DNA of 64,000 nucleotides from Candidatus Enterousia sp. (lineage in GTDB: Bacteria > Pseudomonadota > Alphaproteobacteria > Rs-D84). Below, piece after piece: positions 1 through 26,004 of this stretch. Below the pieces are notes generated by a model. That model searched no databases, was not told the origin of the DNA, and was given only the letters and a program-made list of their open reading frames with translations. The stretch spans positions 6,100 to 70,099 of the forward strand of contig JBGUKY010000021.1 of assembly GCA_045114635.1 (NCBI GenBank), written 5' to 3'. Position numbers and translations under genes: made by a program. Numbering within the stretch: the first letter of the stretch is position 1; each line of letters opens with the position of its first letter.

Positions 1-2803
1 CTTGTTTACATAAAGCAGCAGCACTATCAAGCGATGCTTTCGCATCTTGTAATTTTGCCTTTGCAGATTCAAGAGAATCTCCACCCTCGCTTTCTGCTGC
101 TGTGTTAATACTGATATCATTTATCATTTCAGCATAATTTATACAAGAAGATTTCTTTTGTTTTGCAGATGAAGAGGCACCGTTCGCAACATTTGATTTA
201 TTTAACCATTTGCCCAAAACGCCGGATTCTGTCAAACCTGTACCAATTGCACCGCCACCCAAAAGACCGGCAACCGCGCCCCATGCATATTTAGATTTTG
301 TAGATGAAGAATTCACCAAATTACCATTTGAATCACGTACTTTAAGTCCAGCATCAACCAAAGCTTGTTCGCCAACCTTTTCTGTGATTTTTTGTAATGT
401 TTTATCGTCTATCCAAGAACCACATGTGAATGCATCACCAACCGCGAAATACGCTGTTGCTTTATCACCCAAAACTTCTTGGATTGCACGATCGTCTGAT
501 GTGACTGTGATACGTGCACGACAGAACGAACCATACAAATCATTAGATGCTTTGAATTGTTTTGTGGTCAAACCTTTCATATTATAATTCTTCGGGATCT
601 TGTTAGAATTCAATTTTACCCACATGAATGTTGAACCATTTTCAGCAGCACCCATAATACCACCGTTGTTTTGAGCCAAGCACATACCTTGTTCTTTTGT
701 AAGTTTAGCATTGTATTTTGCCTGGGCTTCTTTTTCAACATCAGCCAACAATTCTTGGAACAAAGATGTTCCGGCATTATCTAATTTATAATCAGCTATG
801 TTTTGATATACAGGTGTATCATATACACATCCGTTTTCGTCCATTATACCAATACATTGACCTTCGTCACTTGGTTCTTCTTGGATTCCAGCAGGACAAT
901 CATCACTTGGATTTGATACTGTACATGCAATCAAAACTTTATCAGGATTTTCAACAAGAGTTGCTGTTGTTGAATTTGCATCTCTCCATGCGCTTCTGAC
1001 AGAAGTGTTTGCACCCCAAGAATCTGTATCTGTTGTTAATTTATTAATAGCAATCTTTAAATGTTCATTACATACAGATGAATCTTTAACAGTATTCAAG
1101 CACAAACCGATAACAATATTGTAATCAAGAACGCCACCCATTTTATTCATACTGTTATCAAATTTTGCCTGGCCAGTACTATATGTTCCAGACATAACAT
1201 CTGTTCTGTTACGATAGCAACTTTCATAATCTTTACCACACATAGATTTTACACAAGACAATGCAACTGTTTGACATTGTTTACGCATATTTTCAATTGC
1301 GGCATCATTATAAGATGTTGCCAATGTTGCATTCAAAGATGCGATTACACCAATTGGATCCGCAGATACGCTTGAATCTTCTGGATAAAGTGTTGTGAAA
1401 ACACTGTTTTCATCATTCATATATCCAGCAAACAAACTACCCTGACTTAAAACTGCTGCATATTGGCAGTTCGCATCTGTATCTACAATAGCACGACAAG
1501 CAGATCTTACTTCTTTATAAGATTTAGGTGCCTTGGTAATATTGACTTCACCTGTGGAAGCATCACGAGATTGCGAATAACAAACAGATCCGATACCACC
1601 ACCGCAAGAACGCATAGCACAAGATGAAATTGTATCAATACACTTATCTTGAACCTTGGCATCAAATTTATCTGTTATTTGATTTATTTTATCTTTCAAT
1701 GCAGTAAAACGTCCAAATTCACCATTGTACATATCATCGAACACTTCACTTACATTATCAGGATCTGTCAAAACAGATTCTTTTGTAACCGGTTTTGCCT
1801 TTACAGTCATATAACAATATCTGTTTGAACCGATTGTTTGCTGGCATTCTTGACGGATATAGTTCGCAACTTCGCGTTTTGTTGTGATTTGAGAAATTTC
1901 CATTAAATCTTGTGCTGTCACAGCACGACCACCATTAGTTGCATCAGCAATTCTTATCAAGATTTCAGGACGATCTTCAATACATTTGTTTGGATTTTTC
2001 GAACAAGCATTCAAAATACATTGATCTGTAACCTTGTTACATGTAGCAACAGCATTATTTACAGCCAACGCAGCGCCTTCTGTAATCATTTCAGACAATC
2101 TTGAACCGCTTGCAGGTTGTAAAGACGACGCAGCAGCTGTTGATCCGAACAATTCTGTTTTTCCAGCAACTTGACAACGTGCTAATGTTGAATCACAAGA
2201 CAAAGCTTGTTTTTTGAATTCTTTTGGATCTGTACACAATTCAAAATCTTGGCCACAGATACTTTCTTTGTGTAAACAGGATGTGTATTTTTTAACACAT
2301 TGGTCTGTATCCAAACGATTTTCAATTTGAGCCGCTGTTATCATCTGCCCCAAAACACTGCTTGCTGTTGGGTATGTATATGCAGTGATTTCGCCATTTG
2401 AATCTGTTGTTGCAGATGTTGCAATTGCGTTCAAATCATACGACCCAAACAAAGAGGCACGACCAGCGTTGCTACATTGTGACAAAACATTCAAACATGT
2501 TGGCGTTTTAGCGTGTAACAATATTGTGTTTGTACATTCTTCAAATTCAGAACCGCAAGCATCATTACCCTTGATACAAGCCGAATAGTTATCGATACAA
2601 TCAACGTCTGCCAAATATGTTGTGGAAGTTCCGTTAATAACCGAAGACGTTGTACCGCCTGTGACCGAAGTAATATATCCGGCAATTGACGGTAAACGCG
2701 GCGTTGCCTTTGCCACCATGCTTACGCGTGATGTAGCCGCCATTGCCCCTGGAATCACGGCAAAAATTGACAATAAACCTAATGCTTTGACGATGTTCTT
2801 CAT
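1..2803 (-). CDS. Very large cysteine-rich tandem-repeat secreted/surface protein, partial (>930 aa; C-terminus lies beyond the window start).
   Basis: I read the reverse strand by hand from an ATG at 2803-2801: MKNIVKALGLLSIFAVIPGAMAATS..., a typical Sec signal peptide. The frame stays open to position 1. No competing ORF >100 aa exists on either strand across 1000-2400 in the supplied track, which appears to omit ORFs that run off the window edge. Internal ~50 aa repeats are visible: CIDNYSACIKGNDACGSEFEECTN...CLNVLSQCSNAGRASLFG versus CVKKYTSCLHKESICGQDFELCTD...CDSTLARCQVAGKTELFG. Near the C-terminal end there is a glycine-zipper hydrophobic segment, AWGAVAGLLGGGAIGTGL. The track ORF 2634..2816(-) is a different frame overlapping this start. 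Confidence 0.6.
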   Translation of the reverse strand, partial: MKNIVKALGLLSIFAVIPGAMAATSRVSMVAKATPRLPSIAGYITSVTGGTTSSVINGTSTTYLADVDCIDNYSACIKGNDACGSEFEECTNTILLHAKTPTCLNVLSQCSNAGRASLFGSYDLNAIATSATTDSNGEITAYTYPTASSVLGQMITAAQIENRLDTDQCVKKYTSCLHKESICGQDFELCTDPKEFKKQALSCDSTLARCQVAGKTELFGSTAAASSLQPASGSRLSEMITEGAALAVNNAVATCNKVTDQCILNACSKNPNKCIEDRPEILIRIADATNGGRAVTAQDLMEISQITTKREVANYIRQECQQTIGSNRYCYMTVKAKPVTKESVLTDPDNVSEVFDDMYNGEFGRFTALKDKINQITDKFDAKVQDKCIDTISSCAMRSCGGGIGSVCYSQSRDASTGEVNITKAPKSYKEVRSACRAIVDTDANCQYAAVLSQGSLFAGYMNDENSVFTTLYPEDSSVSADPIGVIASLNATLATSYNDAAIENMRKQCQTVALSCVKSMCGKDYESCYRNRTDVMSGTYSTGQAKFDNSMNKMGGVLDYNIVIGLCLNTVKDSSVCNEHLKIAINKLTTDTDSWGANTSVRSAWRDANSTTATLVENPDKVLIACTVSNPSDDCPAGIQEEPSDEGQCIGIMDENGCVYDTPVYQNIADYKLDNAGTSLFQELLADVEKEAQAKYNAKLTKEQGMCLAQNNGGIMGAAENGSTFMWVKLNSNKIPKNYNMKGLTTKQFKASNDLYGSFCRARITVTSDDRAIQEVLGDKATAYFAVGDAFTCGSWIDDKTLQKITEKVGEQALVDAGLKVRDSNGNLVNSSSTKSKYAWGAVAGLLGGGAIGTGLTESGVLGKWLNKSNVANGASSSAKQKKSSCINYAEMINDISINTAAESEGGDSLESAKAKLQDAKASLDSAAALCKQ

Positions 2804-2889: not shown

Positions 2890-3849
2890 TTATTGGTTAT
2901 CAAGAATTTCTTTCAATTCAATCATATCATCTGGCATATGTGCTTTAAAGTGCATTTTTTCACCGGTTATTGGGTGCATAAACTCCAAGATTTCAGCATG
3001 TAACATTTGACCGTTATGTTCGCGCAAAAAATCAAGCAATTCTGGGTCTTTTACGGATCCAATATGCCCCTTTTCACGACCATAAAGTGGGTCACATAAA
3101 ACAGGGAATCCATGTGACGACAAATGAACCCTTATTTGATGGGTTCGTCCGGTCATAAGAGTACAACGAAACATCGAAATACCTGGGCGGGTCCAAACAT
3201 CCATAACATTGACAATTGTATGTGCTGGTTTGCCACCCGTTTTTACCAATGACATTTTTTGTCTATTTCGTGATGAACGAGCAATATTTCCAGTTATTTC
3301 AGCCCCACCCCAAGTTGGAACACCCCAAACAAAAGCAACATATTTACGGGTTAAATCGTGCGCAGAAAAAATCTTTACAAGTCCGCGATATGCGGCATCG
3401 CTTTTCGCAAAAACCATCGCACCACTTGTGTCTTTATCAAGACGATGAACGACCCCGGGCCTTGTTTGGCCACCCAACGCAGACAAATGGGTATAAGCCA
3501 ACAGGTTTTGAACCAATGTCCCTGTTTTATTTCCAGCACTTGGGTACATAACAACACCGCGTGGCTTGTTAATCACAATAATATCATCGTCTTCGTATAA
3601 AATTTCCAAATCAAAATCACTGCTGATATTATCATATGCCACATCAGTCTTTTTTTCAGCAATTTCTACAACAAATTCGTCATTTAATTTTGTTTTTTCA
3701 GACAATTTTAATGGGCGACCGTCAGTGCGATCTATTTTGAATTTTTGAATTTCACTGCGCGAATATTCAGGCATAGAGATTGACAAAAACTTATCAATTC
3801 TTATTCCCACATTTTCTTCATTAACCAAAAATTTTTTGATATCAGCCAT
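2890..3849 (-). CDS. rluD: 23S rRNA pseudouridine synthase, RluA family (RluD-like) with N-terminal S4 domain.
   Basis: Catalytic motif HRLDKDTSGAMVFAK; S4-like N-terminus (IRIDKFLS); 319 aa, the typical RluD size. Confidence 0.75.
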   Translation of the reverse strand: MADIKKFLVNEENVGIRIDKFLSISMPEYSRSEIQKFKIDRTDGRPLKLSEKTKLNDEFVVEIAEKKTDVAYDNISSDFDLEILYEDDDIIVINKPRGVVMYPSAGNKTGTLVQNLLAYTHLSALGGQTRPGVVHRLDKDTSGAMVFAKSDAAYRGLVKIFSAHDLTRKYVAFVWGVPTWGGAEITGNIARSSRNRQKMSLVKTGGKPAHTIVNVMDVWTRPGISMFRCTLMTGRTHQIRVHLSSHGFPVLCDPLYGREKGHIGSVKDPELLDFLREHNGQMLHAEILEFMHPITGEKMHFKAHMPDDMIELKEILDNQ

Positions 3850-4331
3850 TATCTATATTCTGTCCATTTTGGACCTTGTTCACACTTTGAAATATCAATC
3901 GTAAAGTTACGTTTTCCTTCTACTGGACAAGTCAAAATCCCGGTCGAACGAGCCTGGGTTGCATCTTCTGTTGCATTACGCCACGCAAAAGAAATTGTGT
4001 CTGGTTTATAAACACAGACTATACGTAAATGTCCTGACATTTTTCCATTTGGTGACAACCATACACGAACACTGTCTGATTCGCCATAACAAGGAAAAGA
4101 ATCAAGGTAATATAATACCAGACCTTCTTTAACAAGAGATTTATCTGTCCCCTTGATTGTTCCGGTATATTGGTTAAGTTGCAACCCTGTTACCGCAGCC
4201 CAATCAACAGTCGTTGAAAACACGCTTACGCGTTGAACTGGTGCCGGTGCTGGTGGTGGCGGCGTTGACTGTGTATCTGCAAATGCAGCAACACAAAACA
4301 AAGATAAAAATATTATGAAAATATTCTTCAT
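3849..4331 (-). CDS. Small secreted protein with a Pro-rich linker (hypothetical).
   Basis: Signal peptide MKNIFIIFLSLFCVAAFA followed by TPPPPAPAP and a Cys-containing beta-rich region. Start codon overlaps the rluD stop and the ZitP-like gene end, so it looks co-transcribed. Confidence 0.45.
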   Translation of the reverse strand: MKNIFIIFLSLFCVAAFADTQSTPPPPAPAPVQRVSVFSTTVDWAAVTGLQLNQYTGTIKGTDKSLVKEGLVLYYLDSFPCYGESDSVRVWLSPNGKMSGHLRIVCVYKPDTISFAWRNATEDATQARSTGILTCPVEGKRNFTIDISKCEQGPKWTEYR

Positions 4332-4874: not shown

Positions 4875-6203
4875 TTATAAATTCAACATTTCATATTTAG
4901 CACGTATTTGTGTCTGCATATTATTTATCGCATTTATATAATCAGCAACTGTCGCATTCACATTGGCAGAAACCCCACCAAATATTGTTGTCGCAACAGT
5001 TCCTTGATTTGATTCTTGTGCCATTATAATTGAAGCCATACGTGAAAGTTCTGGGGAATTTATATCAACAAAACGTGCCTTACTGTTTTTAATATCCCAA
5101 TAATAAGAGGAATCTTTTGAATCTTGAATTTTATCTGAAATATGTAGTTGTGGTGTCACAGACCCAGTATAACCAACAGATACATATGTCGCATTTATAC
5201 TACCTAAAATTAAATCCATGTCACCTATAATTTTTAACGAAGAAGATTTTCCAGAAGTGTTTGAAACACTAAAACCACTTAAAGTTAAAGTGTTTACATA
5301 CAAATCATTTGTAGAAAAAGAAGAAAATTTTGCCGAATCTGCCAAAGTCAATGTTCCATTGACATTCAGATTCCGAGAATCCGCAGTTAAAGCACCGTTT
5401 ACAACGGCTATATTTGTTGAATATACCGCATCTATGGTTGAACGATTTGCAAAAACTAATGTGGATACATCCAATTTGCCGATTTTTAATTTTTCTTCAA
5501 ATTGTGCTTTATATGCATCTACAAAGCGAATATTTTTTATATCATGTCCATCTAAATTCAAGGCTGATTGCATTGTCGCATCGTCTTCATTTTCTGACGG
5601 CAGTCTCCATAAATATTCTGTATTACCACGTTTTATATTTGTCGTTCCAACCAAACCTTTGGTGTTTGACAAACCAAAATCAGCCGCCGAAGAACGAAAG
5701 GCCCCAAAACCACCGTATGTCACATTACCTTCAACGAAACCAAATTTGCCACCACCCAAGTTAACTATTTCACGTGTACGCATTGGGGATATATCACTAT
5801 TTGTCAAAAGCACTATACCTTGTAACACAGAATTATTTTTATTATCCGAAGATTTCAAAACACGCAGCTGATAATCATCACCATATGTATCAGCAATATA
5901 TTCTGGCAACCCATAATTTATTAAATCATTGATTTTAATATGGGTTATGTTTTTACCCTTTGGACGCATCAGTTCAGTTTTATTTTCAACAATATATCTT
6001 TCAAGTGCATTTTGAACCCTTTCCATTTGTTTTGTTATCGCAACATTTCTTGCACGCAAAACTGCGGTTTGTTGATATCTGAAAACAAACGGTATAATTA
6101 TTGCAGCCAGCGCAACGGTCATCATCAATTCAACAAGCATTCCACCGCGTTGCATATTTTTACGAAAAAGATTCAGTGTTCTCGTCATTATTTCGTATGC
6201 CAA
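4875..6203 (-). CDS. Large type IV pilin-like / pseudopilin-like protein with a class-III signal peptide.
   Basis: MQRGG|MLVELMMTVALAAIIIPFVF: Gly, then a hydrophobic helix with Glu close to +5. The true start may be the internal Met at ~6155, giving a short MQRGG leader like those of the neighbouring genes. Rest of the 442 aa protein is beta-rich and Ser/Thr/Asn-rich. Confidence 0.5.
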   Translation of the reverse strand: MAYEIMTRTLNLFRKNMQRGGMLVELMMTVALAAIIIPFVFRYQQTAVLRARNVAITKQMERVQNALERYIVENKTELMRPKGKNITHIKINDLINYGLPEYIADTYGDDYQLRVLKSSDNKNNSVLQGIVLLTNSDISPMRTREIVNLGGGKFGFVEGNVTYGGFGAFRSSAADFGLSNTKGLVGTTNIKRGNTEYLWRLPSENEDDATMQSALNLDGHDIKNIRFVDAYKAQFEEKLKIGKLDVSTLVFANRSTIDAVYSTNIAVVNGALTADSRNLNVNGTLTLADSAKFSSFSTNDLYVNTLTLSGFSVSNTSGKSSSLKIIGDMDLILGSINATYVSVGYTGSVTPQLHISDKIQDSKDSSYYWDIKNSKARFVDINSPELSRMASIIMAQESNQGTVATTIFGGVSANVNATVADYINAINNMQTQIRAKYEMLNL

Positions 6204-7393
6204 TTTTGTTTTATTATTTTGTTAAATTCATCGGCATCTGGAACTGGTGGAACAGATGCGCGTGTCAAAGTCAATTTTGAAAAAGAAGGTGGTGTCAAAG
6301 AAGGAAACGACCAATTACCTATTTTCAAAGGTGCAACGCCTGCCAACAATAATTCACCAGAAACAGTTATGCCAAAGTTTTCAAAAAACACTAAATCTGT
6401 TGCCGATAAATATGGCGTCAAAAGTTTATTCATAGATATACCACTAAAACCAGAAACACTTCTACCACTTGAAGATTTCAAAATTAAATTACCAGCAACA
6501 TTGACAGAGTTTCCAATTGTTGCTCTATCCACTATCAGTTTACCGTTTGTTGTATATTTATCGTCGTTTAACACTTTCGCTTTGATAAGTCTAAAACCAC
6601 TTGTATCACCCGTCACACGCATAGAAGAAAATGTTATGCTTTCTGAATTCATGTTTGCCCCAGAAGAAAAATATACATTGTTTGCATCAACAACATCTGA
6701 TTCAAGAAACACTGCATCAACATCTATAATTTTAGCAGACAAACCATCAACTTTGGCCGCATTAAATACATTAAAATTATTCATATGTAAGTCACGATTC
6801 ATTTGATTCAAAGCATCTTCGCCCATTGTGCCACGATGCAAGAACCTTGATTTATCTGCCCCTTCAAAATCATGCGATACTCTGAAAATTAAATCACCAA
6901 CATTAAAATCTTCTGGTGCAGACACAGCCCAACTTTGTGAATAGGCGATACCGTCTTCACGTACAACCGCAGCATCTTCACCAATTTGTTTTGCGATATT
7001 TGCCGCTCTGTAATCAGATTTTCCCATATCAAAAGCCAAATAAACATCGCTTATGGACGCACCGTTTACTTTATATCTGTCAATATACCCACTATGAGCA
7101 TCAGCAGATATTTTCTTTAAATCTTCATCAGATAATTTTATTTCTGTTGTATCTTTCCATTGACCTTGATTTACACGAATATAATTTACAACAACATCTC
7201 GTATTTTTACTATTTCATTTGCATGCGCGATATCTTCTGATTCATTAGACATTTCTATAATTTGATTGTACATAAAAGGCGATATAGCAATCACAACAGC
7301 CACAGCCAAAATAACTTCGGTCAATGTTGCACCGTATTGCGAAAACGCGTTTAATCTTTCAAAATATTTTTTACATACAATCACTGCGCCCAC
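6188..7393 (-). CDS. Large type IV pilin-like / pseudopilin-like protein with a class-III signal peptide (long leader).
   Basis: ...FSQYG|ATLTEVILAVAVVIAISPF: Gly, Glu at +5, ~20 aa hydrophobic helix. 401 aa. Overlaps its neighbours, consistent with an operon. Confidence 0.5.
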   Translation of the reverse strand: MGAVIVCKKYFERLNAFSQYGATLTEVILAVAVVIAISPFMYNQIIEMSNESEDIAHANEIVKIRDVVVNYIRVNQGQWKDTTEIKLSDEDLKKISADAHSGYIDRYKVNGASISDVYLAFDMGKSDYRAANIAKQIGEDAAVVREDGIAYSQSWAVSAPEDFNVGDLIFRVSHDFEGADKSRFLHRGTMGEDALNQMNRDLHMNNFNVFNAAKVDGLSAKIIDVDAVFLESDVVDANNVYFSSGANMNSESITFSSMRVTGDTSGFRLIKAKVLNDDKYTTNGKLIVDRATIGNSVNVAGNLILKSSSGRSVSGFSGISMNKLLTPYLSATDLVFFENFGITVSGELLLAGVAPLKIGNWSFPSLTPPSFSKLTLTRASVPPVPDADEFNKIIKQNWHTK

Positions 7394-8723
7394 TCTCTAA
7401 ACATTGTTTTATATTTATTCTTGATTCCAATCTTTGCCAAAAAACATATTGGCATATTATATTTTGTGCCAAGGATTTACTATTATAAGCGACATCCATT
7501 TGATTGATTATATCTTTACAAGAAACTTTTTTGCCTGTTGTATCTTTTGGGTCTGCAATAATTTCAAAAGAATCATTATTTATTCCGTCAACATAAGCAT
7601 CCGGCAAAAGTGTTGTTCCTGCAGGTCTTATATCAATCAATAATGGTCCAGATTGACCATCTAATAATCCATACGAAGTTTGATCACGCAACGATATATT
7701 TGCAGCATATATATTTTTTACATCAACACCTTTTTTGGTGGTATAGGTTAGGCTTTCCGGATCAATATAAACATCTTGTCCACGCGACGCATCCAAAAAA
7801 GAACCGATATCTAATCTATCAACATTAAAACTAAAATTATCAGCACGTACAGCGCCACGAACCAGCCAATCAGAAGGCCCATCAAACCCCGTTCTGCCTT
7901 CGGACATAGAAAAGTCATATACAGACGCAACCTCAGATTCAAACCCACCTGTCGTTCCAAATCTGGAAATAGTACGCAAAGATGCAGACGATGTATTTAT
8001 TTCACCACGCGAAAGAGACAAAGCAGCACCACCATCAGCGCTTTGAAACACCGTTTTATTCGCGTACAAATCTGAAATTTTGTTTTTATCTTTTCTACTT
8101 TCTTCTACACCATAAAGCGACAAAGTAGTAAATTGCGCACTTTCAAATTCACCATTACGCGCAAACAAAACACCTATCTTGTCCACACTTTTTTCATTCA
8201 TATCAAGTTCAGACAAAAAACCGACATTTTCACCTGTTTCTTTTTTTGAAACTATATCGCTGTACATTTCATCAAGCGGTATATCAACTTCGATATTGCT
8301 TCCATTGATCTTTGCATAAAAACCTATTCTTCGCGCCAATTCTGCAAGTTGTATTTTCGACAATTTTCCACTTGTAACATTTATAAAACCGTAAAGCCCG
8401 TCTTCACTTTTGTTGATAATCAAAGATATGTTTTGGTTAAAATGTGTTCTTGGACTAAACCCAAGTGGCAATCCATAATTTTCTAATACTTCTACAAAAT
8501 CTTCTTTGCTCAACTCTTGTTTTTTATACGGCAAATTTTCTTTTTCTTCACGCAAATAAATACGTGCAGCCGATTGTGCCATTTCAATTTGTTCTGTAAC
8601 GGCATACATTTGGGCAGCCATGTCGCGTGATGAAATACGCCGCGCAAAAAAAGGCATAAAAGCAAAAACCAATGTCAATGCTAATAACGCTTGTAACAAA
8701 AAATTACCTGTCTGTTTTTGCAA
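7371..8723 (-). CDS. Large pseudopilin-like protein (GspK/PilX-like: prepilin-type N-terminus but no Glu+5).
   Basis: MQKQTG|NFLLQALLALTLVFAFMPFF, then a 450 aa beta-rich protein with four Cys near the C-terminus. First gene of the minus-strand operon. Confidence 0.4.
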   Translation of the reverse strand: MQKQTGNFLLQALLALTLVFAFMPFFARRISSRDMAAQMYAVTEQIEMAQSAARIYLREEKENLPYKKQELSKEDFVEVLENYGLPLGFSPRTHFNQNISLIINKSEDGLYGFINVTSGKLSKIQLAELARRIGFYAKINGSNIEVDIPLDEMYSDIVSKKETGENVGFLSELDMNEKSVDKIGVLFARNGEFESAQFTTLSLYGVEESRKDKNKISDLYANKTVFQSADGGAALSLSRGEINTSSASLRTISRFGTTGGFESEVASVYDFSMSEGRTGFDGPSDWLVRGAVRADNFSFNVDRLDIGSFLDASRGQDVYIDPESLTYTTKKGVDVKNIYAANISLRDQTSYGLLDGQSGPLLIDIRPAGTTLLPDAYVDGINNDSFEIIADPKDTTGKKVSCKDIINQMDVAYNSKSLAQNIICQYVFWQRLESRINIKQCLESGRSDCM

Positions 8724-10801: not shown

Positions 10802-11257
10802 ATGAGGGAACAATCAGGACGTTCATTGATAGAAATTATCGGCGTACTTGCTATTGGCGCAATTATGGTTTCTGGAACTTATGCGATATATAATTCTACA
10901 AATGCAAAACAAAAAAGATTGATCGCATCAAGTGAATTGGAAAACATTGCAACAAAAACAAAAACACTTCTGGAATATTCTGGTTATATACCTGTATCTG
11001 TTGATTTCTTGATTGAATCTGGCGCGCTATCCAGCGACAAAGCCCCAGCAGGAAGTCAAGATTGGTCGATCACAAGTAATTTTGATGGTACAGAATTTTC
11101 AATCAATTTATCTGGGTTGAGTTTTGATGAATGTGCATATTTCACAACAAAAAAATTTGATTGGACAACACATATAAGCGTTAATGGGTATGACACAAAG
11201 GAAACATCATATTGTCTTAAAACAGGTGACAACAAAATATCATTTTTTGCTAAATAA
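10802..11257 (+). CDS. Type IVa pilin-like protein (prepilin).
   Basis: MREQSG|RSLIEIIGVLAIGAIMVSG: textbook class-III signal with Glu+5. C-terminal Cys pair (ECAYF...SYC) typical of the disulfide-bonded D-region. RBS AGGGGGAC 6 nt after the dnaX stop and no terminator between them. Confidence 0.65.
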   Translation: MREQSGRSLIEIIGVLAIGAIMVSGTYAIYNSTNAKQKRLIASSELENIATKTKTLLEYSGYIPVSVDFLIESGALSSDKAPAGSQDWSITSNFDGTEFSINLSGLSFDECAYFTTKKFDWTTHISVNGYDTKETSYCLKTGDNKISFFAK

Positions 11258-20837: not shown

Positions 20838-21940
20838 AAACAATACTTTTTAATTTGAACGATTCAGAACTTGAACAATTTGTACAAGAATTGGGACAGC
20901 CACGCTTTCGTGCTAAACAAATTCGTGAATGGTTAAACAGGGGTGCACCTGATTTTTCACATATGAAAAACCTGCCCGAAGATTTACGAAATAAATTAAA
21001 CGAAGTCGCCGAAACATTGCCATTAAAAATCGTTAAAAAACTGGAAAGCAGTGACAATCAAACAACCAAGTTTTTGTTGGAACTAAATGATGGAGAACAA
21101 ATAGAATGTGTTTTGATGCGCACAACATACGGCAACAGTGTTTGTGTTTCTTCCCAGGCCGGATGCGCGATGGGATGCAAGTTCTGCGCTTCAACATTAC
21201 TTGGCCTTAAACGTAATTTAACTGTCAATGAAATGTTTTCGCAACTTTTGGTTGCTCAATGGGAATTACGTGGTGATAAATTAGATAAAAAAGATATTCA
21301 TCCAAACGGTGACGCCAATAATGGTGACGTGTCGCATATTGTTGTTATGGGAACCGGCGAACCATTACAAAACACAGAAAACGTTATTGGATTTTTGGAA
21401 CGCGCAAACAGCGAATTAAATATATCTTGGCGCCGCATTACTGTTTCAACATGCGGAATTGTTCCGGGCATAAATGAATTGAATAAGTGGGGACGTCCTA
21501 TCAATCTGGCTATATCACTGCACGCCCCAACAGACGAATTACGAAGCCAAATTATGCCAATCAATAATAAATATAAATTACAAGAGGTTTTAGACGCTGC
21601 ATTCGCGTTTTCAGACACGCACAATCGCCAATTAATGATTGAATATATACTTCTTGGCAAAAAAGACGAAAATGGTGATACAGTGCTTTATAATGCAACA
21701 AATGAATATGCTGAAAAATTGGTCGAATTATTACACGGCCATAATGTTATGGTTAATTTGATACCATGGAACAGTGTGGATGAACGCGATTTCGCATCAC
21801 TTTCCGGAAATGCAGTTCACAGATTCCAAGATATTTTGATTAAAAACGGTATTCATACAAGGATCAGACGTGAAAGGGGGGCTGATATCGGTTCTGCGTG
21901 TGGACAATTAAGATTGAAAAACGCACGGGATAAAAAATGA
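20834..21940 (+). CDS. rlmN: 23S rRNA (A2503-C2)/tRNA methyltransferase RlmN, radical SAM.
   Basis: CAMGCKFC radical-SAM motif; RlmN-type N-terminus; 368 aa. Confidence 0.9.
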   Translation: MKTILFNLNDSELEQFVQELGQPRFRAKQIREWLNRGAPDFSHMKNLPEDLRNKLNEVAETLPLKIVKKLESSDNQTTKFLLELNDGEQIECVLMRTTYGNSVCVSSQAGCAMGCKFCASTLLGLKRNLTVNEMFSQLLVAQWELRGDKLDKKDIHPNGDANNGDVSHIVVMGTGEPLQNTENVIGFLERANSELNISWRRITVSTCGIVPGINELNKWGRPINLAISLHAPTDELRSQIMPINNKYKLQEVLDAAFAFSDTHNRQLMIEYILLGKKDENGDTVLYNATNEYAEKLVELLHGHNVMVNLIPWNSVDERDFASLSGNAVHRFQDILIKNGIHTRIRRERGADIGSACGQLRLKNARDKK

Positions 21941-22686
21941 AATTACGATACATAACATGTTCTGATCCACGCGAACATAATTCGATAAAATCTATTATAT
22001 CACTGGCACGTTTACCACATGCTGAAATTGCTGTCCAATGCCACCCAAGCAAAATGTCCAAGGGTATGCCACGCAACATTTGGTTTAATGAATTATTACG
22101 TGAAGTAAATCAAACATCACGCGTAAGTTTGGCAATACATATAAACAATGAATGGTCCAATGATATTTGTACACGTGGTATTATTCCAGATATTATACTT
22201 GACTGGCTAAAAATCGAAAAACAACATAACAAACCACTTATTAAACGTGTCCAATTAAATATGTCTAAAAACACAGCAGATAATATAAATACAGATGCGT
22301 TGCGTGGTGTATTATATGATTTTCATCATACCGAGTTTATATTTCAATATAACGACAAAACGAAAGATGCGATTGAAAAACTACATAAATCATACGCAAA
22401 GTTTTCAATTCTTTTTGATGCATCTGGCGGCAATGGTATAAGCCCGCAAAATTGGCAAAAACCACCATATGAAAATCATCCAATTGGATACAGTGGTGGA
22501 ATATCACCAGATAATGTTATACGCAACCTCGATAAAATAAATGAAGTTGCTGGCGATCGTGAAATATGGATAGATGCCGAAGGCAAGCTTAAATCACAAA
22601 CATTATTCGAAGACAAGGCATTATTTGATGCAGACACCGCACGCGCATATGTTCGCCGCGCAAATATATGGCAAAGACAGCATTAA
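21937..22686 (+). CDS. Hypothetical protein; C-terminus weakly resembles a TrpF-like (PRAI) TIM-barrel.
   Basis: FDASGGNGISP...GYSGGISPDNV resembles the D.GGTG...LAGGL.P.NV phosphate-binding motifs of PRAI. Start overlaps the rlmN stop (ATGA). Confidence 0.25.
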   Translation: MKLRYITCSDPREHNSIKSIISLARLPHAEIAVQCHPSKMSKGMPRNIWFNELLREVNQTSRVSLAIHINNEWSNDICTRGIIPDIILDWLKIEKQHNKPLIKRVQLNMSKNTADNINTDALRGVLYDFHHTEFIFQYNDKTKDAIEKLHKSYAKFSILFDASGGNGISPQNWQKPPYENHPIGYSGGISPDNVIRNLDKINEVAGDREIWIDAEGKLKSQTLFEDKALFDADTARAYVRRANIWQRQH

Positions 22687-22688
22687 AA

Positions 22689-22712
22689 AAAACCGCTGAA
22701 ACGGCGGTTTTT
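22689..22712. terminator. Bidirectional intrinsic terminator.
   Basis: ACCGCTGAAACGGCGGT hairpin with flanking A-run and T-run. Confidence 0.5.
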
Positions 22713-24744
22713 AATACAGTACACAAGATTGGCCCAATCCATCATCGTGTAGGCTAGCAGATACATTAGGTAAAACTTTATGTACAGATCTCCCCATATG
22801 ACTACATAAATCTAAATCCATACCAACACAAGCTTGTCTTGAACTGCCAACACGTTTTGTTTTACCGCCATACATATTGCAAATTGTATCTATTATTGAA
22901 GAAAAATTTGTTTTTTCTGTTAAAGAATCAAAATGAAAAATGTATTTTCTGCCATCAGTATCTTTACAAGACAAATAATCATCCAGCTTTTTTGTTATAA
23001 AACCATCATCACAATATAAATTTAAATTGTTTTTTTCTGCATATAAACCAATAAGTTTTTTACCTTTGTCTAGATCAGCTTTTGTTTCGCTAAAATCTGG
23101 CACATCTTTATCTGGTCCGACACATTTGTTATTTTTCCACTCCAAATCGCCAATACAATTACATTTCATGCCTTTGCCATCCCAATTATACGCGTTCTTT
23201 TTAACATGTATCTCCAAACAACATGCTTTACCTGCTTCGGTTTTAAACTGTGATGAACAATAACCCTCTGGATTGCTGCTTATTTTATCATCTGTCCATT
23301 GTATTGGTTCGGAAGCATTTTGAAGGCCAGATGTTGTTTCTGTCTTTGCAGAACAAGTAAATGTTTTTTCATTCAATACTGGTTTATCACTTGGACATTC
23401 ACAGATTGTATTTGTTTCATTTTTTACAAGATTACCCTTACATTCTGTCACTTTACATTTATTGCCTTCGACAATCCCATCTTTTGCTTTTAATTTATTC
23501 AATGTAGCAACTTTACATTTTTTTTGGCTTGCTACACCATCATCATCAAGATCTTCGCATTTGTGGGTTTTCCTGTTTTCAACTTTATCTGGGCCACAAT
23601 CACAAACAGTTCCACGCCATGTACCACCACTTTCAGGACTTTCACATGCTGCTTTGAATTTATTTATTTGATCTGCTGTATCTTTTGTACAAACCACATC
23701 TGAATCTAAACCTTTGGAAGCGATCGAATAATTTTTACCATTTAATGTTGTGTGGAAACCAGATTTACATTCTTGGATAAAACATTCCATTGTTCCGCCT
23801 TCGGCTTCTAAATAAACAGCTTTGACGGCATTATTTTGTTTTAAAAATTCAGAACCACACGGATCTTGTTCGGTGCTAGTTTTTGCACGTTTTTCTTTGC
23901 TTTTATCTACCACAGGGGCTGTTGATACAACTTTTTTGTTTTTACCTGGTTCGGTTGTTATAGCGTTTCCTTCTACTTCATCTTCATCGGATTCATCAGC
24001 TATACATTGTTTAGAATCAGGCGTGTAAAAACCATTGTTACATTCATTTATCAAACATTGTACTATTGTTTTTTCTGTATAATCTTCTGGTATAACTTTT
24101 TTTGTTGCCTCTTCTTCAGAAACAGAGGTTATTGTTTTATACGTTTCCCAATTTGTTGTCGCCCAAGCGCCACCGAATTTTGTAGTTTTTATATTGTCTG
24201 ATTTCTTGTTATCATCGTGTCCCTTGCAATTTGTCATAAACTTAATCACAGCATCTGCAAATTGTGAACGCAAAGACGGTGGTAATTCTTCTGGTTCATA
24301 TCCACGTGTAATAACACTATCGCCAGGATTTCCAGCCAAACCATTTATTCTTGCTATATCTTGTGTGGCAATAATTGTTAATGTATGTGTTCTATTGTAT
24401 TCGGCCACCCTTGCCGCTTCTGCAGCTTCTTCTTCAGCTTTTTGTTGTTTTTTTCTGTTATATTCTTTTTCTTTGTCCTGAAGAGTCGTATTTTGTTTTT
24501 CTATTGTTTTAGTATTATCTTTGATTATTTTTGCTTCTGCTATATTTCCAGCAACACCAACAGCAGTTAATCCAAGTGTCGATATTCCGGCAATCTGAAG
24601 TCCCTTATTGGTTCCCATACATTTTTCTAGTTCTTCTATTTTGCGCTGCTTTTCACGCACCAATTGGGTGTAACGCGCAGACGAACCAAAACATATACTT
24701 GGGGTCACTAGCAATAACAAAAAAGACATAAAATATTTTTTCAT
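22711..24744 (-). CDS. Cysteine-rich repeat secreted/surface protein carrying an N-terminal Cys+glycine-zipper module.
   Basis: Signal peptide, then EKCMGTNKGLQIAGISTLGLTAVGVAGNIAEAK, then many Cys-bounded repeats (INECNNGFYTPD / IQECKSGFHTT / CKVTECKGN...). 677 aa. Confidence 0.55.
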   Translation of the reverse strand: MKKYFMSFLLLLVTPSICFGSSARYTQLVREKQRKIEELEKCMGTNKGLQIAGISTLGLTAVGVAGNIAEAKIIKDNTKTIEKQNTTLQDKEKEYNRKKQQKAEEEAAEAARVAEYNRTHTLTIIATQDIARINGLAGNPGDSVITRGYEPEELPPSLRSQFADAVIKFMTNCKGHDDNKKSDNIKTTKFGGAWATTNWETYKTITSVSEEEATKKVIPEDYTEKTIVQCLINECNNGFYTPDSKQCIADESDEDEVEGNAITTEPGKNKKVVSTAPVVDKSKEKRAKTSTEQDPCGSEFLKQNNAVKAVYLEAEGGTMECFIQECKSGFHTTLNGKNYSIASKGLDSDVVCTKDTADQINKFKAACESPESGGTWRGTVCDCGPDKVENRKTHKCEDLDDDGVASQKKCKVATLNKLKAKDGIVEGNKCKVTECKGNLVKNETNTICECPSDKPVLNEKTFTCSAKTETTSGLQNASEPIQWTDDKISSNPEGYCSSQFKTEAGKACCLEIHVKKNAYNWDGKGMKCNCIGDLEWKNNKCVGPDKDVPDFSETKADLDKGKKLIGLYAEKNNLNLYCDDGFITKKLDDYLSCKDTDGRKYIFHFDSLTEKTNFSSIIDTICNMYGGKTKRVGSSRQACVGMDLDLCSHMGRSVHKVLPNVSASLHDDGLGQSCVLY

Positions 24745-25112
24745 TATTCGTTACCTATGTTTTCTATTTTTTTATCCCAAGATTTGAGTTGTTCTTTGTT
24801 TGAAGAAATAGTATCTTTTTGTTCCTTGATTTTTACCCCCTGAACACCAGCAGCAATACCTGTTGATACAACACCAGCCGAACCAATAACAGTTGCAGCA
24901 ACCCAGCCTTTTTTCTGTTTTTCACATTTAGCAATTTCTTCGTCCAATATAGCAATATCATTTTCAAGTATAGCAATAGCTTCTTCTTCATTTAATTCTG
25001 CTTCCATTTCTGCTGCATATTTTTCAGCGGTATGATTTTTTGTCTTTACCGCAGCATCTGCATTGAAAGCACCAAAAGCAATCATCAGAACAAATATAAA
25101 TATATTTTTCAC
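24744..25112 (-). CDS. Small secreted protein with a Cys+glycine-zipper module, paralogous to the N-terminus of the upstream 677 aa gene.
   Basis: Signal peptide MKNIFIFVLMIAFGAFNADA; AKCEKQKKGWVAATVIGSAGVVSTGIAAGVQGVK aligns with the 677 aa protein's module; coiled-coil flanks. Confidence 0.45.
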   Translation of the reverse strand: MKNIFIFVLMIAFGAFNADAAVKTKNHTAEKYAAEMEAELNEEEAIAILENDIAILDEEIAKCEKQKKGWVAATVIGSAGVVSTGIAAGVQGVKIKEQKDTISSNKEQLKSWDKKIENIGNE

Positions 25113-25175
25113 GAAAATCCCCCTGCTCTATTATTTAATATATTATACCATAAAACGCATATATATAAAAACAAA

Positions 25176-25638: not shown

Positions 25639-26004
25639 TTATCTTTCGTTTATCATCATCAACTGTACTGCTTTAGCAGGAAGTTCCAAATGTCTTTCCC
25701 AAAAATCATTCAAATAAAGTTTTGGAATGATATTTGTATTTGCATCTTTTAATGCCGCATCATACGTATCAAAAAGATTATTACCACTTAGCATTAAAAA
25801 TAATCTTTTTTGTCCCGATGGCGCAATATCGTATCTGTGCATTTCAAAACGGTATTTACCTGTGATTTCGCTGTGTGCAATACCTGTTAAAAACATACCA
25901 GCTAATATCTCTCTATATTTTGCAACTTGGGCGACAGAGCAGCCTAAATAGGCTGCCCAATCGCTGTCCCTCCATTGTGTTCTATCTTCCATAGCCACAA
26001 TCAA
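25639..26004 (-). CDS. Hypothetical protein (121 aa), co-transcribed upstream of ybaB.
   Basis: ORF with a tight 3 nt junction to ybaB; possible HTH-like stretch (CSVAQVAKYREI). Confidence 0.3.
   Translation of the reverse strand: MIVAMEDRTQWRDSDWAAYLGCSVAQVAKYREILAGMFLTGIAHSEITGKYRFEMHRYDIAPSGQKRLFLMLSGNNLFDTYDAALKDANTNIIPKLYLNDFWERHLELPAKAVQLMMINER

Follow-up and report, generated by a model that had tools for sequence, protein, structure and literature searches.

A two-gene operon encoding predicted exported proteins

We examined a 64,000-nucleotide stretch of Candidatus Enterousia DNA (contig JBGUKY010000021.1), referred to below as the window, and focused on a cassette of two adjacent minus-strand genes that we call A and B. 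A reading made beforehand from the letters alone (the sequence-only reading) had described two open reading frames (ORFs) here, and both were present at the coordinates it gave. Gene A (24744..25112, minus strand) starts with GTG, has a ribosome-binding site GGGGGA upstream and encodes a predicted small exported subunit of 122 amino acids (aa). Gene B (22711..24744, minus strand) encodes a predicted exported protein of 677 aa, in which a module at the N-terminus is followed by a large Cys-rich ectodomain.

The two genes overlap by 1 nt in the sequence TAATG, where the last base of the A stop codon is also the first base of the B start codon ATG. A promoter-like site upstream of A (25142..25169, minus strand) consists of TTTATA, a 16-nt spacer and a TG-extended TATAAT; it was recognised by consensus match alone, at 10 of 12 positions. 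It lies downstream of a terminator-like hairpin (25196-25177) that follows the tRNA-Val gene (25280-25204), both upstream of A. Another terminator-like hairpin with a T-run (22692..22705, minus strand) is located 6 nt past the B stop codon. Together, the promoter-like site, the 1-nt overlap and the terminator-like hairpins indicate that A and B have their own bicistronic operon; as predicted from these signals, the pair is a single self-contained minus-strand unit.

Both proteins have signal-peptide-like N-termini, in agreement with the sequence-only reading. The putative signal peptide of A (25053..25112, minus strand; aa 1-20) reads MKNIFIFVLMIAFGAFNADA and is followed by AV. Its n-region contains Lys, and it further has a hydrophobic core and a small-x-small site, with cleavage inferred after A-D-A and before A; these features are conserved in homologues. 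In B, the putative signal peptide (24685..24744, minus strand; aa 1-20) reads MKKYFMSFLLLLVTPSICFG and is followed by SS, with the same three features, again conserved in homologues; cleavage after C-F-G and before S was inferred from the family alignment. A lipoprotein reading of B was rejected, as homologues have G, T, A or V at the position of Cys18; being unconserved, this Cys does not mark a lipobox.

The A module (24753..24983, minus strand; aa 44-120) contains, in order, heptads, Cys63, a Lys collar, a glycine-zipper segment and a second helix. The helix before the Cys is built of three tandem heptads, EEAIAIL, ENDIAIL and DEEIAKC. These are encoded by a 21-nt tandem DNA repeat (2.7 copies, 24922-24978) and end in the invariant Cys63 (codon 24924..24926, minus strand), the sole Cys of the mature protein. 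Cys63 occupies heptad position d, where the two preceding heptads have Leu, and this core position would favour a disulfide between chains. The glycine-zipper hydrophobic segment (24837..24908, minus strand; aa 69-92) reads GWVAATVIGSAGVVSTGIAAGVQG and is invariant at nearly all positions. It runs from GWVAAT to VQG and is bordered by K62, K65, K67 and K68 on one side and by K94 and K96 on the other.

The B module (24445..24681, minus strand; aa 22-100) is composed, in order, of a basic helix, Cys42, a glycine-zipper segment and a long helix. Cys42 (codon 24619..24621, minus strand) is invariant and is the odd Cys of the protein; the alignment places it opposite Cys63 of A and so at the core position. 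In B, the glycine-zipper hydrophobic segment (24532..24603, minus strand; aa 48-71) reads GLQIAGISTLGLTAVGVAGNIAEA.

A and B are paralogous through a shared module

According to the sequence-only reading, A and B share an alignable module. The strings it quoted were present, and the similarity was marginal by pairwise BLASTP (E=0.016 over 59 residues) but clear when family profiles were compared. Aligned by hhalign, the A family and the N-termini of the B family gave a Prob of 95.1% (E 3.2e-8, score 49.5). With full alignments the values were 96.1% and E 3.1e-9 over 105 columns, and Cys63 of A stood opposite Cys42 of B. Each of 40 shuffle controls permuted columns only inside the signal peptide, the first helix, the hydrophobic segment and the second helix; they scored 15.5 +/- 4.0 (maximum 25.8), and a reversed profile scored 20.5. 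Among 706 stop-to-stop ORFs of the window, the hidden Markov model (HMM) of each module ranked the other protein second (E=4e-4), with nothing else below 0.05.

The sequence-only reading had itself named Gly/Ala composition as the explanation that could undo the proposed similarity. On that account, the likeness would be an accident of Gly/Ala-rich hydrophobic stretches beside charged helices, and the weak BLASTP value is what it would predict. The profile score, far above shuffles that preserved both composition and segments, does not fit such an accident, and neither do the reciprocal second-best HMM matches. The spacing from Cys to Gly is also the same in both proteins, the invariant Cys standing six residues before the Gly that opens the 24-residue segment, and the two genes are always adjacent. 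We therefore consider a compositional origin to be extremely improbable. A and B are paralogues through a Cys and glycine-zipper module flanked by helices; in the window, both show the defining sequence of signal peptide, helix, Cys, small-residue-rich segment and helix, with A directly upstream of B.

We identified 145 homologues at 50-81% identity to window A. A search of 1.84 billion representative proteins with the A-profile HMM yielded only 162 clusters (at 50% identity), of which the best 150 listed ranged from 59 to 247 aa. The motif C-x4-(K)x-W-x-A-T-x-x-G-x-x-G-x-x-x-T-G-x-x-A-x-x-Q was kept in all A clusters listed. The few clusters with a source name were labelled Alphaproteobacteria, except for one labelled Bacteroidia. 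The latter, P0264, is a distant A-family member labelled 'Bacteroidia bacterium' (GHT57913.1, sorted-cell assembly); either its contig was mis-binned or the family occurs, rarely, outside Alphaproteobacteria.

Scans with Pfam, NCBIfam and PHROGs gave no above-threshold family for A, B, the short B' and stand-alone C proteins of other genomes, or a giant protein at the left end of the window (the latter three are described below). Comparison with known glycine-zipper families had been suggested in the sequence-only reading; Gly-zipper_Omp, Gly-zipper_YMGG and Rick_17kDa_Anti of Pfam gave no match to A, B or the giant at E<=1, with the limit that HMMER filters drop most matches above E ~0.1. Among PDB sequences, the A profile found nothing beyond chance matches such as sirtuin-6 and designed coils, and Foldseek with the AlphaFold2 model of A returned no matches. 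The expectation that the family has no named homologue thus held for Pfam, PHROGs, the PDB sequence search and Foldseek, with sub-threshold matches only in NCBIfam. The A/B module is uncatalogued, being absent from Pfam, NCBIfam, PHROGs and PDB. A precomputed label carried by two A homologues, PF26768, was not reproduced in the Pfam scan and could not be named.

The Cys-rich ectodomain of B

The variable ectodomain of B (22714..24387, minus strand; aa 120-677) contains 30 Cys. AlphaFold2 predicted confident domains at residues ~120-257, 294-340, 356-470 and 480-677, with a mean predicted local distance difference test score (pLDDT) of 79 for the ectodomain. Searching PDB and BFVD with this model by Foldseek gave no match at E<=0.001, the best values being E 0.2 (PDB) and 0.007 (BFVD). 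Two Cys motifs had been described as repeated. EC[NK][NS]GF[YH]T does occur twice, as ECNNGFYT (residue 234) and ECKSGFHT (residue 325); C-x-V-T-E-C was found once only, as CKVTEC at residue 430. Across the 79 homologues of the B family, approximately the first 100 residues were conserved (50-74% identity) and the remainder was variable. One relative matched a CPL1-like Pfam family, which is Cys-rich and of extracellular type.

The core of the C-terminal domain of B (22861..23103, minus strand; aa 548-628) is homologous to stand-alone C proteins of other genomes. The C family aligned with B residues ~548-628 by hhalign (Prob 96.8%, E 2.4e-10) and an HMM match was also obtained. The C proteins are encoded in a subset of cassettes, which we call mini cassettes, comprising A' (~100-130 aa), B' (~125 aa) and C (190-230 aa). 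B' consists of the module and a short tail with two or four Cys. The C proteins, encoded after the A'-B' pairs, are secreted-type and Cys-rich and have their own signal peptides, indicating that this domain is exported. The homology between C and the C-terminus of B indicates that window B is a B-C fusion into which additional Cys-rich domains have been inserted.

Distribution, pairing and synteny of the cassette

We scanned one genome per species and obtained 47 loci; the 53 loci that were fetched represent 44 distinct cassettes. All 47 loci came from rumen or gut metagenome-assembled genomes labelled Candidatus Enterousia, Alphaproteobacteria or uncultured proteobacterium. Several genomes contributed two or three loci, and some genomes of <1 Mb hold 2-3 cassettes. 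The multigene family proposed in the sequence-only reading is therefore real for A and B, although the giant protein that it also included does not belong to it (see below).

At every locus where both genes were readable, an A-type gene (97-171 aa) was directly followed by a B-type gene (100-890 aa), in whose product the module begins near residue 23. The arrangements B-A-B (L007), A-B-B (L030, L032) and A-B-A-B (L034; B of 838 and 890 aa) were also found, and the first two show that B-type genes can locally outnumber A-type genes. Over the 44 distinct cassettes, the identities of the A and B modules co-varied (Spearman 0.62). Paralogous cassettes within a genome have diverged in both genes, which indicates that whole cassettes were duplicated together. 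The pairing is obligate and ordered, with A preceding B.

In relatives, the gene order is PNPase, a 118-121 aa orphan, YbaB, tRNA-Val, A and B, followed by a convergent 249 aa orphan, RlmN, a SurA-like gene, LptD, LptFG, NusA and IF2. As LptD, LptFG and OmpA are encoded nearby, the organism is a diderm. The cassette is lineage-specific; it is present in all relatives examined and duplicated in some. Its orphan neighbours in the window (249 aa at 21937-22686, plus strand; 121 aa at 25639-26004, minus strand) are syntenic and 57-79% identical in relatives and have no Pfam family.

Divergence and phase variation

Proteins encoded near the cassette were 75-96% identical to those of related genomes (PNPase ~95%, RlmN ~91%, LptD ~80%). 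The corresponding identities were 54-75% for A and 55-79% for the B module. For the B ectodomain they were 31-46% over 91-348 of 567 residues, or similarity was undetectable, and the length of B among relatives ranged from 100 to 890 aa. Judged from these comparisons, the predicted ectodomain is modular and hypervariable and diverges far faster than its neighbours.

In four mini cassettes, A' has an (AC)n tract near the 5' end of its coding sequence, after the start codon and ahead of the hydrophobic signal-peptide core (L041:5935-5962, n=14; L043:5930-5947, n=9; L048:5970-5981, n=6; L051:5958-5993, n=18). The tracts of L048, L043 and L051 (n=6, 9 and 18) keep the reading frame and are translated as (Thr-His)n. 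With n=14, the body of A' in L041 is out of frame and a stop follows after 27 codons; one additional repeat unit would restore the frame. Only five (AC)n tracts with n>=5 were present in the ~610 kb of fetched DNA, and four of them were the A' tracts. Tracts of this kind classically mark slipped-strand phase variation in exposed proteins, and these likely act as such a switch.

A proposed disulfide-locked insertion module

Several regularities of the two families bear on how A and B may work. After the module Cys, 112 of 114 B proteins had an even number of Cys (2-58), and many of these counts were not multiples of four (e.g. 6, 10, 14, 18, 22, 30). No further Cys followed it in 304 of 307 A proteins. 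Such even counts, often not multiples of four, suggest that the ectodomain Cys pair as disulfides in an oxidising compartment rather than forming Zn sites. The same parity leaves one unpaired Cys per subunit, at the aligned position. Over the 18 residues before this Cys, the net charge averaged -2.45 across 307 A proteins and +2.06 across 115 B proteins, and an acidic A helix together with a basic B helix is what an A-B heteromeric zipper would need.

In both families, the column profile of the hydrophobic segment showed invariant G, A, S or T every 3-4 positions over ~24 residues. A near-invariant segment with a stripe of small residues is unlike a generic anchor and suggests that helices pack against each other in a specific way. 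The module Cys on its N side and the disulfide-rich domain on its C side both appear to be extracytoplasmic, which argues that the segment is not a simple single-pass inner-membrane helix. It might instead be a re-entrant half-spanning tip, cross the outer membrane, or stay buried until a target membrane is met.

In the model we propose, A and B would be Sec-exported paralogous subunits working as a pair, each with its module of ~75 residues after the signal peptide. The helices before the Cys, acidic in A and basic in B, would zip into a parallel heteromeric coiled coil, which a Cys63(A)-Cys42(B) disulfide would lock. The adjoining glycine-zipper segments would pack helix to helix and insert in a membrane, either as a half-spanning re-entrant tip like that of XaxA, a subunit of a binary toxin, or by crossing the outer membrane; in both cases the two ends of the segment would lie outside the cytoplasm. 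The bacterium, dependent on partners, would thereby anchor the ectodomain of B (560 residues, 15 disulfides) in its envelope or at its surface, as a fast-evolving contact or recognition domain; in other cassettes this domain is the separate C protein. In our estimation, the reading that A and B form a heteromeric glycine-zipper insertion module, locked by a disulfide and keeping a fast-evolving, disulfide-rich ectodomain on the extracytoplasmic side, has an even chance of being correct. The pair would probably function in contact with partner cells, as surface gear. The lifestyle proposed for Enterousia (order Rs-D84) agrees with this: its genomes of <1 Mb have no TCA (tricarboxylic acid) cycle, respiration or standard uptake transporters, and it has been proposed to be an obligate symbiont or parasite, whose many hypothetical membrane proteins may mediate cell contact (PMC12306168). 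The analysis shows the module homology, the A-then-B pairing, the lone Cys of each subunit, the opposite helix charges, the rapid turnover of the ectodomain and the (AC)n tracts of paralogous cassettes; we infer the heteromer, the disulfide, the insertion, the membrane involved and the biological role.

A number of observations weigh against this model. The AlphaFold2 monomer of A was poor (pLDDT 56.8) and uninformative, and the hydrophobic segment of B had pLDDT <50. The segment is moderately hydrophobic, with Hessa-scale sums of ~+3 to +4 kcal/mol that do not assure insertion, although these sums are indicative only, as signal peptides also scored positive. Mutual-information covariation in 245 non-redundant A sequences showed helical periodicity, with pairs at i+3/4/7. 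For hairpin contacts it gave weak long-range pairs only (z ~3.5), near the alignment edges (i+j ~150), so that it does not choose between a hairpin and a straight helix for A. Homodimers (A-A and B-B) would explain the lone Cys equally well, and B genes outnumber A genes at some loci. Finally, the window cassette has no repeat tract, and the evidence for phase variation comes only from paralogous cassettes in other genomes.

The XaxA lead and alternative readings

The NCBIfam model NF033928 (alpha-xenorhabdolysin binary toxin subunit A) matched 82 of 82 A-family members at E<=0.01, the best at 1.1e-8. Window A matched with residues 40-117 at model positions 179-255 of 339 and scored 23.4 bits (E 3.2e-5), short of the curated cutoff of 125 bits. 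None of 10 segment-shuffled or reversed A controls matched at E<=1, which indicates that the signal depends on residue order and not on composition alone. Other matches in the A family were to NheC (14 members), MakA (one) and MakE (one). The 77 members of the B family gave no XaxB-named match at E<=0.01, although an XaxB model may not be in the library; single members weakly matched NheC and MakE. XaxA and YaxA were not retrieved with the A profile from PDB sequences even at E<=10. The low score, the coverage of a quarter of the model and the lack of B and PDB matches favour functional analogy or very remote kinship over membership.

This lead allows A and B to be read as a minimal binary alpha-pore-forming system that is exported by Sec and has kinship with the XaxAB/YaxAB heads (ClyA superfamily). 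Released or presented on the surface, its zipper tips would enter the membrane of a partner cell and form a pore or conduit for metabolite uptake, and the variable domain of B would be the receptor-binding part. The order-dependent match throughout the A family fits this proposal, as does the two-gene A-then-B order. A channel could well be lined by the near-invariant glycine zipper. The Lys collars of A resemble the conserved Arg/Lys belt of XaxA, which comes after a hydrophobic coiled-coil tip that half-spans the membrane (PMC6086661). The lack of standard transporters in Enterousia and its proposed dependence on partner cells (PMC12306168) also fit. However, the score of 23 bits is far below the cutoff of 125, no more than 77 of 339 model positions are matched, and the tail and neck domains are absent. 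The B family has no XaxA match and only single weak NheC/MakE matches, and the PDB search retrieved neither XaxA nor YaxA. In every relative, moreover, the cassette has a syntenic housekeeping position, as is seen more typically with core envelope components than with toxins. We regard a binary pore as unlikely.

That position, beside LptD, LptFG, the SurA-like gene and RlmN in the core genome, would rather suit an ordinary structural envelope pair, that is, a periplasmic coiled-coil tether or scaffold resembling FtsB/FtsL, Lpp or spanins, with the Cys-rich part of B simply a periplasmic domain and no cell contact involved. A and B are both small proteins with a coiled coil and one hydrophobic segment, and some members weakly match FtsL, DivIC, Rz-like LysB, TolA and Lpp below threshold. 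These matches are sporadic, though (1-5 members), and confined to coiled-coil regions. Replacement or shuffling of a domain between close relatives, two or three paralogous cassettes in a genome of <1 Mb and frame-shifting (AC)n tracts are not what one would expect of a housekeeping scaffold, and the topology, with a cleavable signal peptide and a mid-protein segment, is unlike that of FtsB/FtsL. We therefore find a purely structural pair quite unlikely. A still simpler arrangement, in which the segment is a plain single-pass inner-membrane helix and the Cys-rich region of B is cytoplasmic and binds metal, would account for one hydrophobic stretch of ~24 residues with Lys on both flanks, and Cys-rich regions can bind zinc. 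It is very hard to reconcile with the Cys parity described above and with Cys spacing that resembles EGF-like CxxxxCxxGF motifs rather than CxxC pairs. The relative matching the extracellular-type CPL1-like family, the signal peptides of the stand-alone C proteins, and a segment that is rich in G, A, S and T and only moderately hydrophobic also speak against it, and we consider it highly improbable.

The disulfide-locked insertion module is close to the suggestion in the sequence-only reading of an oligomerising membrane anchor or pore-like element. This remains the most sensible interpretation, and it is strengthened by the Cys parity, the opposite charges of the two helices and the likeness to the XaxA tip. 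A bolder possibility, which we offer as a long shot, is that A-B(-C) represents a novel, minimal membrane-insertion device of two components, with the XaxAB-type heads as distant relatives or as a case of convergence. With it, Enterousia, with its reduced genome and dependence on partners, would dock on and insert into the membrane of another cell, the disulfide-locked glycine-zipper bundle acting as conduit or anchor and the hypervariable, in part phase-variable, Cys-rich domain setting the partner.

Candidatus Enterousia is a widespread uncultured lineage of gut and rumen, and the cassette is a concrete candidate for its cell-contact interface. It joins a highly conserved, predicted two-subunit insertion module to the fastest-evolving domain of the neighbourhood. 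For this module we predict one intermolecular disulfide, acid-base pairing of the coiled coils and a hydrophobic segment with both ends outside the cytoplasm.

Other features of the window

A giant secreted Cys-rich protein is encoded on the minus strand at the left end of the window (1-2803) and runs off it; the window holds the N-terminal 934 residues of the 1063 aa protein P0349. P0349 has >880 homologues, the best 120 of which are 49-83% identical, and no Pfam family. Near its C-terminus are two Gly-rich hydrophobic segments ~130 residues apart, and the C-terminal tail, EVGEHIQCYLG..ELGSYGD, is strongly conserved. The sequence-only reading had assigned the giant a module similar to that of A and B, which our comparisons did not bear out. 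BLASTP of its Gly-rich helix against A gave E=0.41, the A and B module HMMs found nothing in the giant at E<=10, and hhalign of its family with the A and B profiles gave Prob 1.8% and 0.2% (scores 20 and 13, within the shuffle range). No Cys precedes the Gly-rich helix. The BLASTP, HMM and hhalign results exclude the giant from the module family.

Close to the giant, a 160 aa ORF (3849-4331, minus strand) has a signal peptide, a PPPPAPAP linker and several Cys and no Pfam family; it lies just downstream of an ORF that looks like an RluD-like pseudouridine synthase. Three consecutive large ORFs at 4875-8723 (minus strand; 442, 401 and 450 aa) have pilin-like hydrophobic N-termini and no Pfam match. 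A 151 aa ORF at 10802-11257 (plus strand) has a sub-threshold match to PF07963, the prepilin N-methylation motif (E 0.003, 17.4 bits against a cutoff of 21.2). These four ORFs may represent a divergent set of type IV pilus or type II secretion pseudopilins.

Comparison with known systems

Phase-variable surface families include the outer-membrane protein genes of Helicobacter pylori, with CT repeats, and the opa genes of Neisseria, with CTCTT repeats. Like these, the A/B cassettes form a multigene family of paralogous exported proteins with rapidly diverging exposed domains, in which short tandem repeats between the start codon and the signal-peptide core switch the reading frame. The H. pylori and opa types are single-gene beta-barrel outer-membrane proteins, whereas a helical two-subunit module is predicted here, and the repeats are found only in the mini cassettes of other genomes.

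With glycine-zipper envelope proteins, including the SlyB/Pcp type, A and B share small size, export in a diderm and repeated (G/A/S)xxx(G/A/S) in a hydrophobic segment, and the segments of those families pack helix to helix in or at the membrane. Unlike SlyB, Pcp and the 17-kDa antigen, A and B have no lipobox, the A site being A-D-A before A. Flanking heptad coiled coils, an invariant Cys and an obligate partner that is a paralogue set A and B apart from those families.

FtsB/FtsL (DivIC) are likewise two small paralogue-like proteins with a hydrophobic segment beside a coiled coil, and they act as a heteromer. Our matches to them were sporadic and sub-threshold (E 0.004-0.03). FtsB and FtsL have an uncleaved N-terminal anchor, whereas A and B have a putative cleavable signal peptide and an internal segment. 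A and B further differ in their conserved Cys, in the several cassettes per genome and in the variable ectodomain.

XaxA is a protein of ~400 aa with a tail bundle, a neck and a head (PMC6086661), an architecture that takes ~340-410 aa, whereas A has 122 aa and neither tail bundle nor neck. A also differs from XaxA in its putative Sec signal peptide and its invariant Cys, and B, with no consistent ClyA-family match, carries a large disulfide-rich domain. What the cassette has in common with XaxA/YaxA is the two-gene A-then-B organisation and, as in XaxA, a moderately hydrophobic segment that would form the tip of a coiled coil and is bordered by basic residues, here the Lys collars of A (PMC6086661).

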